A DNA stretch of 64,000 bases from Alphaproteobacteria bacterium. Lineage in GTDB: Bacteria; Pseudomonadota; Alphaproteobacteria; TMED109. The notes below the pieces were generated by a model. The model was given only the letters and a program-made list of their open reading frames with translations, ran no database searches and was not told the DNA's origin. The position numbers were made by a program, and so were the translations under genes. Of the stretch, positions 58,075 through 64,000 are shown piece by piece. The stretch spans positions 2,225,471 to 2,289,470 of the forward strand of contig OZ244896.1 of the NCBI GenBank assembly GCA_965221495.1, given 5' to 3'. Position 1 is the stretch's first letter. The number at the start of each line of letters is the position of its first letter.

Positions 58075-58817
58075 CCGAGCTGCGGTGGATCGGATTCCGG
58101 TGACCGTCCCTTCGGCTGCCTATTGAGCCGGGGTCATCGCGCAACCACGGATCGAATCATCACACCCGGCCGGTCGCGCGCTGGCCGGAATTCCACCTGG
58201 CAACGCCCCCCGCTCCGGCATCGGTCGGCAAATTCCCGCAGGGCTTGTCGTCCGGCAGCCACCTTTTCTGCAATCCAGTCGCGTTCTTTTCGCGCTAGAG
58301 CGGCTTTCGTGCGGGTTGAGCCATAGAGCCAGCGTGGCAGAAGAAATTAGCGCAGAGACATTAATTGATTGTCTGTTCAACAAAAACTGCACGAAATCCT
58401 CGCGCCGTTCCAAATAACCCCAAGCCTTCAAGCGACCGTTCGGAGAAGAGCTCAGAACAAATACTGCCTCCGGTCCGACGCGCTCACAAATCGTTTTCCT
58501 GTAGCGTCAAGGCTGAGAAATAGCCTCTTGGTTTGCCGACCGACAACATGTATTCCACCAGATCATGCAGCCAAGGCAAGACTCAAATTTCGCCGACCGC
58601 TTCCACGACCTCCTCAATGAACTGCCGGAAGGCGGCGTCAAAGATCTATTCCCGCAACCTCCGGCACGAGCCCGCTGGTTGTTGATAACTAGAACAGGTG
58701 TTCAGGGTTGCTCGAACATCACATACCGCACACTTGCGCCGAAGCGGCCACCACAGAAGGGCTTTCCGTGATGCAGCCAAATGCGGTAGGATCCTTCAAG
58801 ACAGGCGTCGACACGAG

Positions 58818-60386
58818 ATGAGCCATCCGAATAGAGAGTTCTGGCTTCATTTGTTGAAGCTGCCCGAACACGCCAAGAAACAGCGCCTGTGGAATGGATA
58901 CCTCGCTTGGAAACTCCCTGAGGAGACAAAACAAGAGCTTGGTATCGTGAACTGTCCGACACTCACCGAAGACGAAAAGCATCATATTGCAGGTATCGCC
59001 ACCGATAGTTCTGGCCTTCCCCGATATGAGCAAGGGGACCAAACCGTTCCATATATGAATTTCGCAGACGAGGAATTCAGCGCCGACTTCTCCTTTGCTG
59101 GACTGATCTTTGTCCAAGCCAACTTCAATGGTGCAACTTTCGATGCTTCTGAGACGTCTGACGGCATCAATTTCCAAAAAGCAACTTTCGTCGAGTCCGT
59201 AAATTTTAGCAGTGCGCAGTTTCTAGGTTCAACAGACTTCAACGAAGCGGTTTTCCGATGCCGAACCAGATTCGACGGCTCAAGGTTTCGAAACACGGTG
59301 TACTTCAATTGCGCGGCATTTTGTGGTGATGTGGTATTCAACAACTCGACTTTTGGGGGCGCAGCGTATTTTCAGGGCGCAAAATTTTCGTACACCGATA
59401 GATGCCTAGGAGAGCAATTGGTGCAATCGGGCGGTGTGGGATTTAAGTTTTGCAAATTTAGGTTGAGTGCTGATTTCAAGAAGGCGCGATTTGAGGCTAA
59501 CGCCTTTTTCGATCGCGCTAACTTCCGCGACTCCACATATTTCGTTGAGACAGTTTTCGCAAATCAGGCATCGTTTTTGGGCTCAAATTTCGCAGCCGAG
59601 GCGAGTTTTTCTGATTCGAGATTCAAGAACGCCGCGACCTTTCATGATGCCCATTTCCATGCAACAACGTCGTTCCGGAGGGCTCAATTCCATCGTCCGC
59701 CAGGATATTTCCAAACGCGTGTTCACGAGGATACGGATTTCAGCGAAGTGGATTGGAGCGAGGCGGAGCGCAGATACACCCTCATCCCTTCGATAGGAGA
59801 GCGCAAGTCAGAAGACCAAAATCAACTGGCATCGCGCCTTTACCCGGACACGCACCCTCCATTGACCTCAACCTTTATCGATAGAGATCGGGAAATCGAT
59901 CACGCCATCCGAGCTTGGGAACGTCTTGCAGTCATAATGAATGGGATTGGAAACCACGCTGAGGAGCACAAGTTTTTCCGATTCGCCATGCGTGCTCGAC
60001 GGTTTAGGAGCCAATCAAGGCTGTTTAAGCTGGCTAACTGGTTATTTGAGGTGTTGGCTGCGTATGGCTGGAGCGTTAGGCGATCGCTCGGATTCTGGTC
60101 TGCTGTTTGGCTTTTGCCGAGTTTGCTATTCGCATGTCGCGCTCATGCGTTGTCGGATGTTGGATGGTGGCCTCTTGTCCTGCAAAGCATGGCCGTCAGC
60201 TTCTCCAATGCTCACGCCTTCCTTGGGCTGGGCTCGCAAGGCGGATATTTGAGAGAAGCCAGGGAGGGCCTGTTGGATACGATTCCGTGTCTGCTCACAG
60301 TGACAGGCACCTTTCAGGCCGTTTTCGGTCCGATTCTGCTGTTCCTCCTGTTATTAACCTTACGGAACCGTTTTCGCATCCGCTGA
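58818..60386 (+). CDS. Pentapeptide-repeat protein with a C-terminal multi-pass membrane domain
   Basis: About 250 aa of A(D/N)(L/F)xx-type repeats (ANFNGATFDAS, ATFVESVNFSSAQFLGSTDFNEAVFRCRTRFDGSRFRNTVYFNCAAFCGDVVFNNSTFGGAAYFQGAKF ...). Three hydrophobic segments follow (WLFEVLAAYGW ... FWSAVWLLPSLLFA; WWPLVLQSMAVSF; LLTVTGTFQAVFGPILLFLLLLTL). Confidence 0.75.
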   Translation: MSHPNREFWLHLLKLPEHAKKQRLWNGYLAWKLPEETKQELGIVNCPTLTEDEKHHIAGIATDSSGLPRYEQGDQTVPYMNFADEEFSADFSFAGLIFVQANFNGATFDASETSDGINFQKATFVESVNFSSAQFLGSTDFNEAVFRCRTRFDGSRFRNTVYFNCAAFCGDVVFNNSTFGGAAYFQGAKFSYTDRCLGEQLVQSGGVGFKFCKFRLSADFKKARFEANAFFDRANFRDSTYFVETVFANQASFLGSNFAAEASFSDSRFKNAATFHDAHFHATTSFRRAQFHRPPGYFQTRVHEDTDFSEVDWSEAERRYTLIPSIGERKSEDQNQLASRLYPDTHPPLTSTFIDRDREIDHAIRAWERLAVIMNGIGNHAEEHKFFRFAMRARRFRSQSRLFKLANWLFEVLAAYGWSVRRSLGFWSAVWLLPSLLFACRAHALSDVGWWPLVLQSMAVSFSNAHAFLGLGSQGGYLREAREGLLDTIPCLLTVTGTFQAVFGPILLFLLLLTLRNRFRIR

Positions 60387-60960
60387 ATACGCTGGCAATT
60401 GCTAACCTTGCGGCGAAGCGGAGCCTTCGCCCCCTTAACCTCCCATCAAGAATATCCTTCAGCGTCCCGTGAGGCGGGTCCAACGCCGGGGCCATCAATG
60501 ATTTCGGGCGCGATGAACAGAGAGTTGCCGGGCGACCAGAGTTCGAGGCTTTCGGCATGTTCCTCGAAATAGTCCGGATAGGTCGTCACCCGGAATGTCT
60601 CATGCATGCCGGTTTGCAGAGTCACCGGGCACTCCACCGCACCGATCACCGCCGCATCCGCCAGACACTGCCCCTCAGGCCGCCGATCCGCAGCCCTGCG
60701 GCCCGGTTTAGGAAATCGGAATTTGATCCAAGCCAAGCGTCGAGAGGCGCACCGTGATCGAGGACTTCAAGGTGCCTACCGATTGAGACAGGTGATCCAC
60801 CGGTTTGGTAAACGGCCTGCACCCTGAGGTGCTCCCGTGTCGCGACATAGCCGAGGTTCGGTCGAGCCCTTGGTGCGATACCGACGTACAAACCGAGAAG
60901 GAAACCACGACAGAGGATATCGCGAACCGCCTACACGTTATGTCTCGCCTGAAGCCCTAC

Positions 60961-63900
60961 CTATGCACCACCTGCTAATTTCTCCAACTCCTGACGGAGC
61001 CCCGGGTCGAATGGCACCCCAACGGCGGCCTCCGCCGCTAGGGTGAGGCAAGCCGCAAACAGTTCGCCTTCAAGCTCGCTACCGAGCGCTTCCAAGACGG
61101 GTGGAGTGGTCGTTGCAGGCGCACGCAATCGAAAACGCTGCTTCTGAAGAATGCGGTTCCAGCGCGCCATTAGCCAAGGCTTAAGGCTCGGCAGCACGAA
61201 TGGTTTGAAGTCAGATTGAGCGATCCATGTCAACAGACGTATGCCTGCGAGCAAAATCAGATCCGGTGACGGAACCGCTCCCTTAACCAAACGTCCGAGA
61301 ATAATCGCTACTTCATTATCAAGATCAATACCACCAGGAGATCCAGCATCCCAACTGTCGAACAACGAGATCCCGGGATGGGACAGGCCCAATTCCTGCC
61401 TAAGAGCATCGCGCAACTGCTCAAGACCAACTGCACGTTCATCAAGCATCGATCGGATGCCGTAAGCAAGGATCGCGTTCCGAGCAAACTGGTCTGTAGC
61501 AGGATCGTACGGGCCATTGAGGGGCAAACTAGGAAAGATCACCCTCTCGGGATTAAGGACGCTGAATGATTGACGAATATTCGTCGAGTTTACAGAGCAA
61601 TAAGTTGCCGATTGCAAATATTTCAGCAGGTAGGACGAAAAACCAACAGCGTTTTGCTCAGAAATCATTGCACCAATAACGTAAGTTCGAAACCAATGTT
61701 CGGAATATGGGATATGACCTTGCGCACCAAATTTCTCGACAACTTCCCGAACACCCGTGTTGAAACCATTTACTAGTTCGATCTCTGCCAGCATGTACCA
61801 ACCGAAGTCAATGTGACCAAGAGGGTGCTGTTCAATCGCAGGCGCTGGCTCTGGGTTACTACATGCTCCGGGAAGAATTGTGATCGGCTTGCCTTCGATC
61901 TGGGGACACTCCCCCTCGACCATCGCCTTCAACCACAAGATCGCGTGTCTGACCAGTCGGTGACAGTGAGCCGCCTGCAAATTCGAATCAGCGCCAAACT
62001 TAGCTAGGCCCAGCATCGCATCTTTCATCAACACTATTGCTTCACGAAGGTTTCCTACCTGGAAGCTCGCCACGGCCGCGTCCGCGCGAAGTCCGACGTC
62101 TATTGCACCAAGATCAGCTGCATTGAGTGTCGTCGAGGCTGAGGCTCCGCGAAGAAACCATTGACGAGCTACCTCCCACTCTCCACATTCTGCCGCGCAA
62201 ACAGCTGCTTCACGTACCACGAACACGCCATCAACAGCGCCAAACTTCGACATTTGAGAGACGGCGTCACGGAAGCAGTCGAGAGCTTCCGAGCCCCGCC
62301 CAATACGCTGGTAAAGTTTCGCAAGCGCCCGCACCAGAACCGCTTCGCGACCAAACCTGCCTGCGGCGTTACCGAGAACATCAATCGCACGAGCTGAATC
62401 GTTGAGTTGCTCATGGAGAATCATTGCGACGGCCACATGGCACTGGATGCTCAGACTAGCCAAGTCCCACGACTCTGCTTGTTGACCCATCTTTGTGTAG
62501 CTTTCGATCGCAGCAGCTGCATCAAAGTCAGGTCGGCGAGCCCGCGACGTCCATGGATAGTGAACCAAAAGGAAATATTCTTGGGAATTAGTATTAATAG
62601 GAGTCAAAAGATCAGTCCGTTCGTCGTCATCCAGCCGAGACAAGTCGTCAAAAATAGTCTCGAGACGTTTCACACAGTCCAAACCAGCAATGCCGATGTT
62701 GAACATCACTGCTCCCAACGGAAACTGAGGATCAGGCATAGCAACTGTAGCTCGCTCTGAGTTTGCGAAGTGACGGAAACGAGACAGCAAACTCACCCAG
62801 TCGGAGAGATGACGCGCGACACCGAGATTGTTGAGAGAAACGCCGAGCGCCGCACCCTCGAAGTCCGCCCGATCTAAGTCATTAGGCATGGCATCTATCT
62901 CGGAAAACAGGGCACCTGCTACTCTATCGGCATCATCAGATTCCTCTCCCTTTATGAGTAGCTTCAACTGCATGAGGCGAAGCATTACAGAGGTAGGCAG
63001 GTTCGCCGGATAGATCGGCCTAGTTGAGTCAAGATAAGGAAAAATTACGACGTGCTTCGCTATGTATCTAAGCGTCTTTTCATCGGCTGAATTTATCGCC
63101 TTGGCTAGCTCTACAAGAACATCCTGTGACGCTCCGAAAAGGCCATGATGTAGGATGGGGTCGATATCGGACACACTAATCGTTTTGCGGGCGGTTAAGG
63201 CTGTTGCAAATTCGCGGTGGACTAGGCGCTGCCGTGTTGTCGTCAGCATGTTTTGCGCGACACCACGCATGAGAGGCGAGAGGCGATAGCGATCTGACTT
63301 TGTTGGCTCCAGCCAACGGTCCGCTAACTCATCGAAACATTCACCTGCACGCTCGATTGAGGGTTGGACTGTTCCAACTGCGACACCGAGAGATCGTTCG
63401 AATGGTGCAATGGCGAGACTCAATCGATAAAGGAGTTCTCGTGTCGGTTCAGAGAGGGTGTTTCTCAGTTTGTTTCTCGCCGCACGAAACTCATCTTCTA
63501 AGTCGGCATTAGTGAGTCCTCCTACGATTAGACGATCAATTTCGAAGTTTGGCCAGTCGCGTGCTGCCATGCCGGCAACAAAAACATAGGTCAATTGCGG
63601 ATGACCGCCTCCACAAGCCAGATGAGCAACGTGACCCCAAACGCTTGGGTCTCCGTTGTGATCTCTGATCAGCTCGTGGGTTTCTTCCAGAGTGAAGTGG
63701 GGTGATTTGACGATACTACTAGAATCGGTGGCGAGCGCGTTCAGAAGCGTTGCCGAGGGTCGGCGATTGCTTGTGACGATGATCCGCATATCGCGTCGTT
63801 TTGCACCTCCAACAACTTCGCCGAGCGAAGTTTGCACCGATGGTTCCGCTAGACAATTGATATCCTCCAACATGAGCGTCGCGGGGCCTAATTCAGCTAA

Positions 63901-64000
63901 AAGAATGAAGACCTGTTTGAGACGTTTCTGAGTTTCTGAGACGTCGGCATCCCGTAGGTCGACCCAGAAGCAAGGACCAGCAAAAGTGCCGGCGACGCAC
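60961..64000 (-). CDS. Large STAND/NB-ARC-like NTPase with a long alpha-helical (TPR-like) C-terminal region; N-terminus (Walker A and any effector domain) lies outside the window
   Basis: The reading frame stays open upstream of the listed ATG (63873) to the window edge (… FWVDLRDADVSETQKRLKQVFILLAELGPATLMLEDIN …). It has a Walker-B-like LMLEDI, RIIVTSNRR (sensor-like) and ACGGGHPQLTYVF (GLPL-like). More than 700 aa of helical repeats follow. Confidence 0.68.
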   Translation of the reverse strand, partial: CVAGTFAGPCFWVDLRDADVSETQKRLKQVFILLAELGPATLMLEDINCLAEPSVQTSLGEVVGGAKRRDMRIIVTSNRRPSATLLNALATDSSSIVKSPHFTLEETHELIRDHNGDPSVWGHVAHLACGGGHPQLTYVFVAGMAARDWPNFEIDRLIVGGLTNADLEDEFRAARNKLRNTLSEPTRELLYRLSLAIAPFERSLGVAVGTVQPSIERAGECFDELADRWLEPTKSDRYRLSPLMRGVAQNMLTTTRQRLVHREFATALTARKTISVSDIDPILHHGLFGASQDVLVELAKAINSADEKTLRYIAKHVVIFPYLDSTRPIYPANLPTSVMLRLMQLKLLIKGEESDDADRVAGALFSEIDAMPNDLDRADFEGAALGVSLNNLGVARHLSDWVSLLSRFRHFANSERATVAMPDPQFPLGAVMFNIGIAGLDCVKRLETIFDDLSRLDDDERTDLLTPINTNSQEYFLLVHYPWTSRARRPDFDAAAAIESYTKMGQQAESWDLASLSIQCHVAVAMILHEQLNDSARAIDVLGNAAGRFGREAVLVRALAKLYQRIGRGSEALDCFRDAVSQMSKFGAVDGVFVVREAAVCAAECGEWEVARQWFLRGASASTTLNAADLGAIDVGLRADAAVASFQVGNLREAIVLMKDAMLGLAKFGADSNLQAAHCHRLVRHAILWLKAMVEGECPQIEGKPITILPGACSNPEPAPAIEQHPLGHIDFGWYMLAEIELVNGFNTGVREVVEKFGAQGHIPYSEHWFRTYVIGAMISEQNAVGFSSYLLKYLQSATYCSVNSTNIRQSFSVLNPERVIFPSLPLNGPYDPATDQFARNAILAYGIRSMLDERAVGLEQLRDALRQELGLSHPGISLFDSWDAGSPGGIDLDNEVAIILGRLVKGAVPSPDLILLAGIRLLTWIAQSDFKPFVLPSLKPWLMARWNRILQKQRFRLRAPATTTPPVLEALGSELEGELFAACLTLAAEAAVGVPFDPGLRQELEKLAGGA

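Follow-up and report, generated by a model that had tools for sequence, protein, structure and literature searches.

The right end of a 64,000-nucleotide stretch of an alphaproteobacterial genome (contig OZ244896.1, positions 2225471-2289470; this whole stretch is referred to as the window) carries on its minus strand a gene for a nuclease that is fused to a STAND NTPase and a long C-terminal repeat sensor. From sequence comparison and structural models we suggest that its product is very probably an antiviral STAND (Avs) protein, i.e. an antiphage sensor that is encoded by a single gene. In the window the frame (60961..63999) is still open at the edge, and a sequence-only reading of this DNA had taken the gene for truncated there. 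This is borne out by 20 kb of genome sequence around the right end (designated L002; window coordinate = L002 + 58000), in which the frame runs to L002 7049 and the coding sequence begins 1005 nt outside the window, with an ATG at position 65004 in window-equivalent numbering (L002 7004; genome 2290474). The start codon was picked by alignment with homologues: the product of this ATG begins METALGPPNADTARQAI and lines up residue for residue with the N-termini of the closest homologues, and thus the gene comprises 4044 nt and encodes 1347 amino acids. The window edge cuts the protein at residue 336, five residues past the Walker A loop.

The central part of the protein was judged from an AlphaFold2 model of residues 1-700, built on an alignment of 91 sequences (mean pLDDT 85), and from conservation in a set of 35 homologues that are 35-64% identical to the query and to which all counts of family members given here refer. 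The P-loop, on whose presence upstream the sequence-only reading depended, lies just past the window edge as GPTGTGKS (residues 324-331), with G324, G327, G329 and K330 invariant. The further motifs named in that reading, FWVDL, LMLED, RIIVTS and GGHPQL, each occupy the expected STAND position in the model and are conserved in the homologues. FWVDL forms strand beta2 (residues 345-349; D349 and R351 each present in 32 of 35), the Walker B sequence TLMLED lies in strand beta3 (E380 in 31/35, D381 in 33/35), RIIVTS represents strand beta4 (residues 407-412; T411 in 33/35), and GGHPQL (466-471) stands at the start of a helix in the helical domain, with G467-H468-P469-Q470 invariant throughout. 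R403 is kept in 34 homologues, and in the winged helix R527, W564, E566, R574 and P577 are invariant. The model shows a five-stranded P-loop domain (319-433) followed by a helical bundle (439-494) and a winged helix with a beta-hairpin (500-575). Hence a P-loop nucleotide-binding domain, a helical domain of the GxP type, a winged helix, an N-terminal effector and a C-terminal repeat sensor, i.e. the features that characterize STAND proteins, are all found in this one chain.

Comparison of the 1-700 model with the PDB by Foldseek ranks terminase-bound Avs3 first (8dgc_A, E=3.3e-11, 816 aligned columns), in line with the likeness to Avs proteins that had been noticed from the letters of the window. 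After Avs3 come MalT, CED-4 (TMt 0.57), NRC4, the STAND-TPR (tetratricopeptide repeat) protein 6mfv, ZAR1, HerA-DUF4297, Hachiman, LmuA and PAB2304. The same list includes the classical AAA+ proteins FtsH, p97 and Rix7 (E 1e-6 to 1e-4), and it has to be asked whether the protein is a Cdc48- or FtsH-like mechanoenzyme fused to a nuclease, which would work as a ring hexamer with no STAND switch. Such an assignment could appeal to Pfam AAA (PF00004), which matches residues 322-420 above the cut-off with E=5.5e-8, and to sequence searches of the PDB with the protein and the family profile, which returned only the Walker region of Cdc48/VCP and Vps4 and did not find Avs3, Avs4 or LmuA. Yet the sequence likeness is confined to residues 321-420 (Walker A through beta4), the second region of homology and an arginine-finger motif are missing, and the succession of a helical domain, with its invariant GxP-type motif, and a winged helix is a STAND signature that is absent from classical AAA+ proteins. 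CED-4 and PAB2304 superimpose with a TMt of 0.57 at 6 Å, as against near 0.3 (FtsH about 0.33) with an rmsd near 17 Å for the AAA+ proteins. Moreover, the NTPase domain of this family is itself a STAND seed in the census of Lee et al. (see below). Since STAND folds top the structural ranking and have the better TM-scores, the ATPase is best described as a STAND, the PF00004 match reflects just the common Walker A-to-beta4 core, and a true AAA+ machine is extremely improbable. Further Pfam matches of the query are weak (AAA_16, nSTAND3, Cap4_nuclease, TPR), and weak matches to nSTAND5 and nSTAND6 also occur; the nSTAND3 profile is matched by 14 of 35 family members. The label “NB-ARC/STAND NTPase” of the sequence-only reading therefore needs to be divided: the STAND part holds with the fold of nucleotide-binding, helical and winged-helix domains, whereas NB-ARC in the strict sense (PF00931) matched neither the query at E<=1 nor any of the 35 members at E<=0.01. 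As judged from motifs and model, the NTPase is a STAND, yet not an NB-ARC domain in the Pfam sense.

The effector, which had been expected to be N-terminal and outside the window, is found exactly there. By profile, modelled fold and catalytic motif, the first 265 residues are a nuclease of the Cap4/LmuA/DUF4297 type with a PD-(D/E)xK site and predicted activity. The only PADLOC match of the query is to LmuA (residues 19-195, E=2.2e-9), which serves Lamassu as its Cap4-type nuclease effector; the same profile is matched by 28 of 35 family members (best E=2.4e-16) and DUF4297 by 15. Pfam Cap4_nuclease reaches E<=0.01 in nine members (best 4e-5), with the query itself below the threshold (E=0.13), and the N-terminal domain searched alone gave a marginal DUF4297 match only (E=0.64). 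In the model an alpha/beta core with strands at 42-65 and 98-105 makes up the nuclease and is prolonged by helices to approximately residue 265; nuclease-bearing Foldseek matches are LmuA (9nxx), HerA-DUF4297 (9c1m) and Avs3 (8dgc). Residues E46, E49, D50, Q63 and K65 are invariant among the homologues. In an alignment with the solved DUF4297 protein 8ziq the segments IRGYEYQ/IKGYLYQ, EVAEDY/EGAIED and AVQVK/AVQCK pair up, which agrees with the PD-(D/E)xK site; in DUF4297-HerA, mutants of this site lose both nuclease activity and defence (PMC11291478). According to the same work DUF4297 is a dsDNA nuclease that is switched on by dimerisation (PMC11291478).

With LmuA as the best defence-profile match and LmuA structures among the fold matches, the protein might also be regarded as a Lamassu-type effector that depends on an SMC-like partner (LmuB/LmuC). 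This we consider hardly credible: the likeness to LmuA is limited to the nuclease domain (residues 19-195), the protein has an NTPase and a sensor of its own, and no SMC/LmuB gene stands beside the family gene, neither in the island described below, which holds two intact genes only and neither of them SMC-like, nor at most of the homologue loci.

The C-terminal part, seen in the window as more than 700 residues of helical repeats, comprises residues 581-1347 (767 amino acids). A model of residues 600-1347 is wholly helical (pLDDT 89, pTM 0.82) and matches generic TPR solenoids only (Ski3, OGT, Ctr9, LGN; E near 1e-4), in agreement with weak Pfam TPR matches; no enzyme fold is present in this sensor model, just as the sequence-only reading had found no enzymatic domain here. 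H620 is invariant in the homologues. Besides, there is one sharply conserved patch that comprises C1014-H1015...H1020, G1046-x-C1048-S-N1050-P-x-P1053 and W1069-Y1070...E1076. Its motifs (C1014-H1015, H1020, PGxCSNPxP, WY.LAE.E) persist down to an enterobacterial homologue of 30% identity, and the patch may bind a metal or serve for docking, for example of a small ligand or a host factor.

The frame is no product of chance: more than 300 full-length homologues with 35-65% identity exist, nearly all of them 1345-1390 amino acids long and nearly all unnamed. The mean identity to the query amounts to 51% in the nuclease, 45% in the nucleotide-binding domain, 51% in the helical domain, 49% in the winged helix and 39-42% in the sensor. 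When the sensor alone was used as query, 845 clusters at 50% identity were obtained (239 with E<=1e-30), and in every full-length match the sensor begins near residue 600. Shorter sensor-bearing proteins (P0132, P0144, P0187, P0135 and P0148; 930-1170 amino acids) start within the same nuclease/NTPase sequence; they look 5'-truncated and appear to be contig-edge fragments or decayed copies without the nuclease. Swapping of effectors, which such short proteins might have indicated, was thus rejected: no new architecture was encountered, and all full-length matches share the one described here. Family members are carried by large plasmids of alpha- and betaproteobacteria. On plasmids NZ_CP033873.1, NZ_CP064691.1 and NZ_CP116732.1 the RefSeq labels read “ABC transporter ATP-binding protein”, “AAA family ATPase” or “tetratricopeptide repeat protein”, so that the nuclease-STAND-sensor architecture was missed; other plasmid-borne members are labelled hypothetical. 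The family was not found among INPHARED phages and IMG/VR contigs and is, by this measure, not phage-borne.

The neighbourhoods of homologues were inspected at eleven loci, an anecdotal sample from which no statistic can be derived. At seven of them there are recognised defence systems no more than 10 kb away. The gene content comprises type I restriction-modification genes with IS1595 and a resolvase at one locus; SLFN/AlbA_2, type I restriction-modification and HigBA at another; helix-turn-helix (HTH) genes; HicB and a transposase; UvrD with a PD-(D/E)xK nuclease and a caspase; Kiwa (KwaA/KwaB) with an integrase; SocA_Panacea with a transposase; and GmrSD, SIR2_2 and NERD with a resolvase. 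On pSYMBR3459 of Paraburkholderia phenoliruptrix a PARIS-like pair of AAA and DUF4276 genes is located directly upstream (L015 6205-8117); the locus also holds a PDDEXK nuclease, and IS66 elements are found downstream. A further, dense island contains HEPN/MNT pairs, DUF1156, DUF4276 and PIN as well as an SMC_N fragment that is 7 kb off and not adjacent. At the locus of Paraburkholderia terricola (L007) an S15 peptidase gene upstream is the one neighbour that was identified. The eleven loci have no partner gene in common, and the unit is a single gene that resides in defence islands. Genes of the HTH_3/HTH_31 type are seen beside several homologues.

The positions of the domains and of the surrounding features are compiled in Table 1.

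Table 1. Features at the right end of the window and in the adjoining genome sequence (numbers are window coordinates; those beyond 64000 are window-equivalent positions)
Feature	Position	Strand	Remarks
STAND nuclease gene, in-window part	60961..64000	-	residues 336-1347 and stop codon (60961-63)
Cap4/LmuA/DUF4297-type PD-(D/E)xK nuclease domain (predicted), residues 1-265	64210-65004	-	outside window
Linker, residues 266-300			outside window; disordered in model
Nucleotide-binding domain, residues 301-436	63697-64104	-	in-window part 63697..64000
Walker A, G324-S331	64012-64035	-	12-35 nt outside window
Walker B, T376-D381	63862-63879	-	
Helical domain (ARC1-like), residues 437-497	63514..63696	-	invariant GHPQ(L) motif at 63592-63606
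Winged-helix domain, residues 498-580	63265..63513	-	helices 500-560, then beta-hairpin 565-575; from DSSP of model and STAND structural matches
C-terminal TPR-like alpha-solenoid sensor, residues 581-1347	60964..63264	-	
Most conserved sensor patch	61777..61965	-	conservation in 35 homologues; kept in Citrobacter/Enterobacter homologue P0220
Terminator-like hairpin	60905..60925	-	36-56 nt past stop codon; from consensus scan alone
Inserted low-GC island, 7.6 kb	58075..64000 in window		from stop of YHS-domain gene (58074) to soxZ stop (65684); L002 75-7683
Pentapeptide-repeat membrane protein gene	58818-60386	+	Pfam Pentapeptide_3, E=2e-27
XRE/HTH_3 (antitoxin-like) pseudogene	65361-65645	-	L002 7361-7645; three in-frame stops; HTH_3 E=6.7e-6 (X at stops); directly upstream of STAND gene

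In the host genome the STAND gene is a foreign element that was acquired horizontally. Its GC content of 0.535 (0.51 at third codon positions) differs from that of the genome (0.637), and the low-GC island to which the sequence-only reading had assigned it can be followed from about 58200 to 65400. None of 60 related genomes (11 of the same genus, 25 of the same family and 24 of the same class) contains a member of the protein family. In eight of the eleven congeners the YHS-domain gene and soxZ are approximately 820 bp apart and a dihaem SoxA is encoded between them. In the present genome this site retains no trace of soxA, which means that the 7.6-kb island replaced soxA; a soxA of 74% identity lies approximately 33 kb farther downstream (genome 2323768-2324481). 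Neither a tRNA gene nor flanking direct repeats were found at the ends of the island. The pentapeptide-repeat gene is convergent with the STAND gene, has a GC content of 0.506 and encodes C-terminal hydrophobic segments; its product has no match in PADLOC or NCBIfam. As a functional partner it was rejected, for none stands beside the family gene at any homologue locus inspected, and it is probably co-transferred cargo.

The state of the island raises the question whether the gene, once transferred, has begun to decay and no longer functions in this genome. The XRE-family gene next to it is reduced to a pseudogene, a consensus scan revealed no sigma-70 promoter upstream, and mobility genes are missing from the island. 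Against this stand an unbroken frame of 4044 nt, a length equal to that of the homologues (1345-1375 amino acids) and the retention of every family-invariant residue except for a few tolerated exchanges, for example N413, so that decay appears very unlikely. The gene lies among sulfur-oxidation genes, MalT is its third structural match, and defence and non-defence STAND clades are interspersed (PMC13581612); a non-immune role, be it that of a MalT- or AfsR-like regulator of the transcription type or of a factor in DNA repair or maintenance of mobile elements, has therefore to be weighed as well. However, the sox neighbourhood is merely the site of insertion and not a conserved context, the homologues are found in defence islands, and the N-terminal nuclease has its catalytic residues intact. 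A placement among MalT, AfsR or LuxR-type proteins, the outcome that would have contradicted the sequence-only reading, was not obtained, as Pfam detects no DNA-binding domain in any of the 35 members (neither a LuxR/GerE HTH nor an OmpR/SARP winged helix N-terminal to BTAD as in AfsR). We regard a non-immune function as unlikely.

The diversity of prokaryotic STAND proteins was recently surveyed by Lee et al. (Nature 657:735, 2026; PMC13581612; bioRxiv 10.64898/2026.01.04.697583), who distinguished 589 clades, 198 of them associated with defence, and defined Avs7-24. A search for the GHPQL motif in their Table S1 leads to seed 414, WP_134769719.1 from Citrobacter koseri, with the NTPase at residues 299-486. 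This domain aligns with query residues 303-485 at 35% identity, ungapped and with E=3e-40. A protein from Paraburkholderia terricola is 46% identical to seed 414 and colinear with the query (36% identity over 1343 residues). Among the sensor matches there is moreover P0220 (1336 amino acids), which is 96% identical to seed 414 and whose 90% cluster includes WP_134769719.1 together with proteins from Enterobacter hormaechei, Cronobacter sakazakii and Pectobacterium brasiliense. Query and P0220 share 30% identity over 1329 colinear residues (E=0) that include the whole sensor and the patch, and the reciprocal search of plasmid sequences yields the same set of records. Full-length colinearity with the cluster that holds WP_134769719.1 means that the family is already contained in the published census; the protein is a member of a known, already catalogued family and no new principle is involved.

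The portal sensor CkAvs11 originates from C. koseri (PMC13581612). As WP_134769719.1 is the only C. koseri seed in the census table, its identity with CkAvs11 is plausible, and only if it holds may the trigger be a phage portal protein. With the species of origin as the sole argument, the chances for this identification are about evenly balanced. We consider it possible, though rather less than probable, that WP_134769719.1 is not CkAvs11 and that the family of 845 clusters represents an Avs lineage with a trigger still to be found. Its sensor would then, unlike that of Avs7, never have been swapped between effectors, and the strikingly invariant Cys/His patch would possibly bind a metal or be a docking site for a small ligand or a host factor and not a simple shape-matching surface.

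The assignment to the Avs type is based on the fusion of a STAND with an effector of the defence type and on homologues that stand beside known defence systems. Several observations speak against it and have to be taken into account. The site of the sensor-1 arginine after beta4 is poorly kept (R414 in 15 of 35), and the sole Pfam match above threshold is the AAA match mentioned above. NCBIfam offers nothing specific for the protein, and the PADLOC models for Avs (AVAST I-V) matched none of the 35 members at E<=0.01. The local neighbours, the pentapeptide-repeat membrane protein and the XRE pseudogene, are not known defence genes, no integrase was found in the island, and the link to a named Avs protein depends on the C. 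koseri origin of one seed. On balance we maintain that a single-gene antiphage sensor is the very probable function predicted by sequence and models.

By analogy with SeAvs3, EcAvs4 and SeAvs7 the following mechanism can be proposed. In the resting state the protein would be an autoinhibited monomer with bound ADP. During infection the solenoid would clasp a newly made phage protein, whereupon the NTPase would swap ADP for ATP and the protein would oligomerise, probably to tetramers. The Cap4 domains would thereby join as active dimers and cut dsDNA indiscriminately, and replication of the phage would be halted at the expense of the infected cell, i.e. by abortive infection.

Seen in this way, a sulfur-oxidising alphaproteobacterium with a small genome (2.5 Mb) acquired a complete, predicted single-gene innate-immune sensor by an insertion that displaced a copy of soxA. 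In addition, a large set of database proteins that are annotated as “hypothetical”, “AAA family ATPase”, “TPR protein” or “ABC transporter ATP-binding protein” can be tied to a defined Cap4-STAND-TPR family. The practical use is a correction of these annotations and the availability of a tractable, E. coli-compatible enterobacterial homologue, present in the published STAND census, for testing.

Among known proteins the cluster of WP_134769719.1 (P0220/P0280 from Citrobacter, Enterobacter, Cronobacter and Pectobacterium) is most directly comparable. It is similar in length (1336 vs 1347 amino acids), colinear through nuclease, NTPase and sensor, and shares the GHPQL motif as well as the sensor motifs CH..RH, PGxCSNPxP and WY.LAE. 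The identity is 30% and the hosts are Enterobacterales instead of an alphaproteobacterium with a small genome; the specificity for the trigger may differ. The terminase-sensing SeAvs3 (PDB 8DGC) is the best structural match and exhibits the same order of Cap4 nuclease, STAND NTPase and TPR sensor, but it comprises approximately 2000 amino acids compared with 1347 here, and the family profile fails to find 8DGC among the PDB sequences. SeAvs7, a sensor of the major capsid protein with a Cap4 effector, has the same order of modules too and a broadly similar size (its sensor residues are numbered past 1050), whereas the spacing between Walker A and Walker B differs (51 versus 66 residues). SeAvs7 is an autoinhibited monomer with bound ADP, whose bilobed TPR part clamps the trigger before an ATP-driven tetramer assembles the Cap4 domains (PMC13581612). 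While Avs7 sensors pair with more than 20 effectors and occur in Dsr1, the sensor described here is found only with its own Cap4-NTPase module. Finally, LmuA of Lamassu, Cap4 of CBASS and DUF4297 of DUF4297-HerA have the nuclease fold and the E-D...QxK motif in common with the query and are activated by oligomerisation. The switch, however, is an SMC complex for LmuA, a cyclic nucleotide for Cap4 and the HerA hexamer for DUF4297, whereas in the present family its place is taken by the fused STAND NTPase with a sensor of its own.

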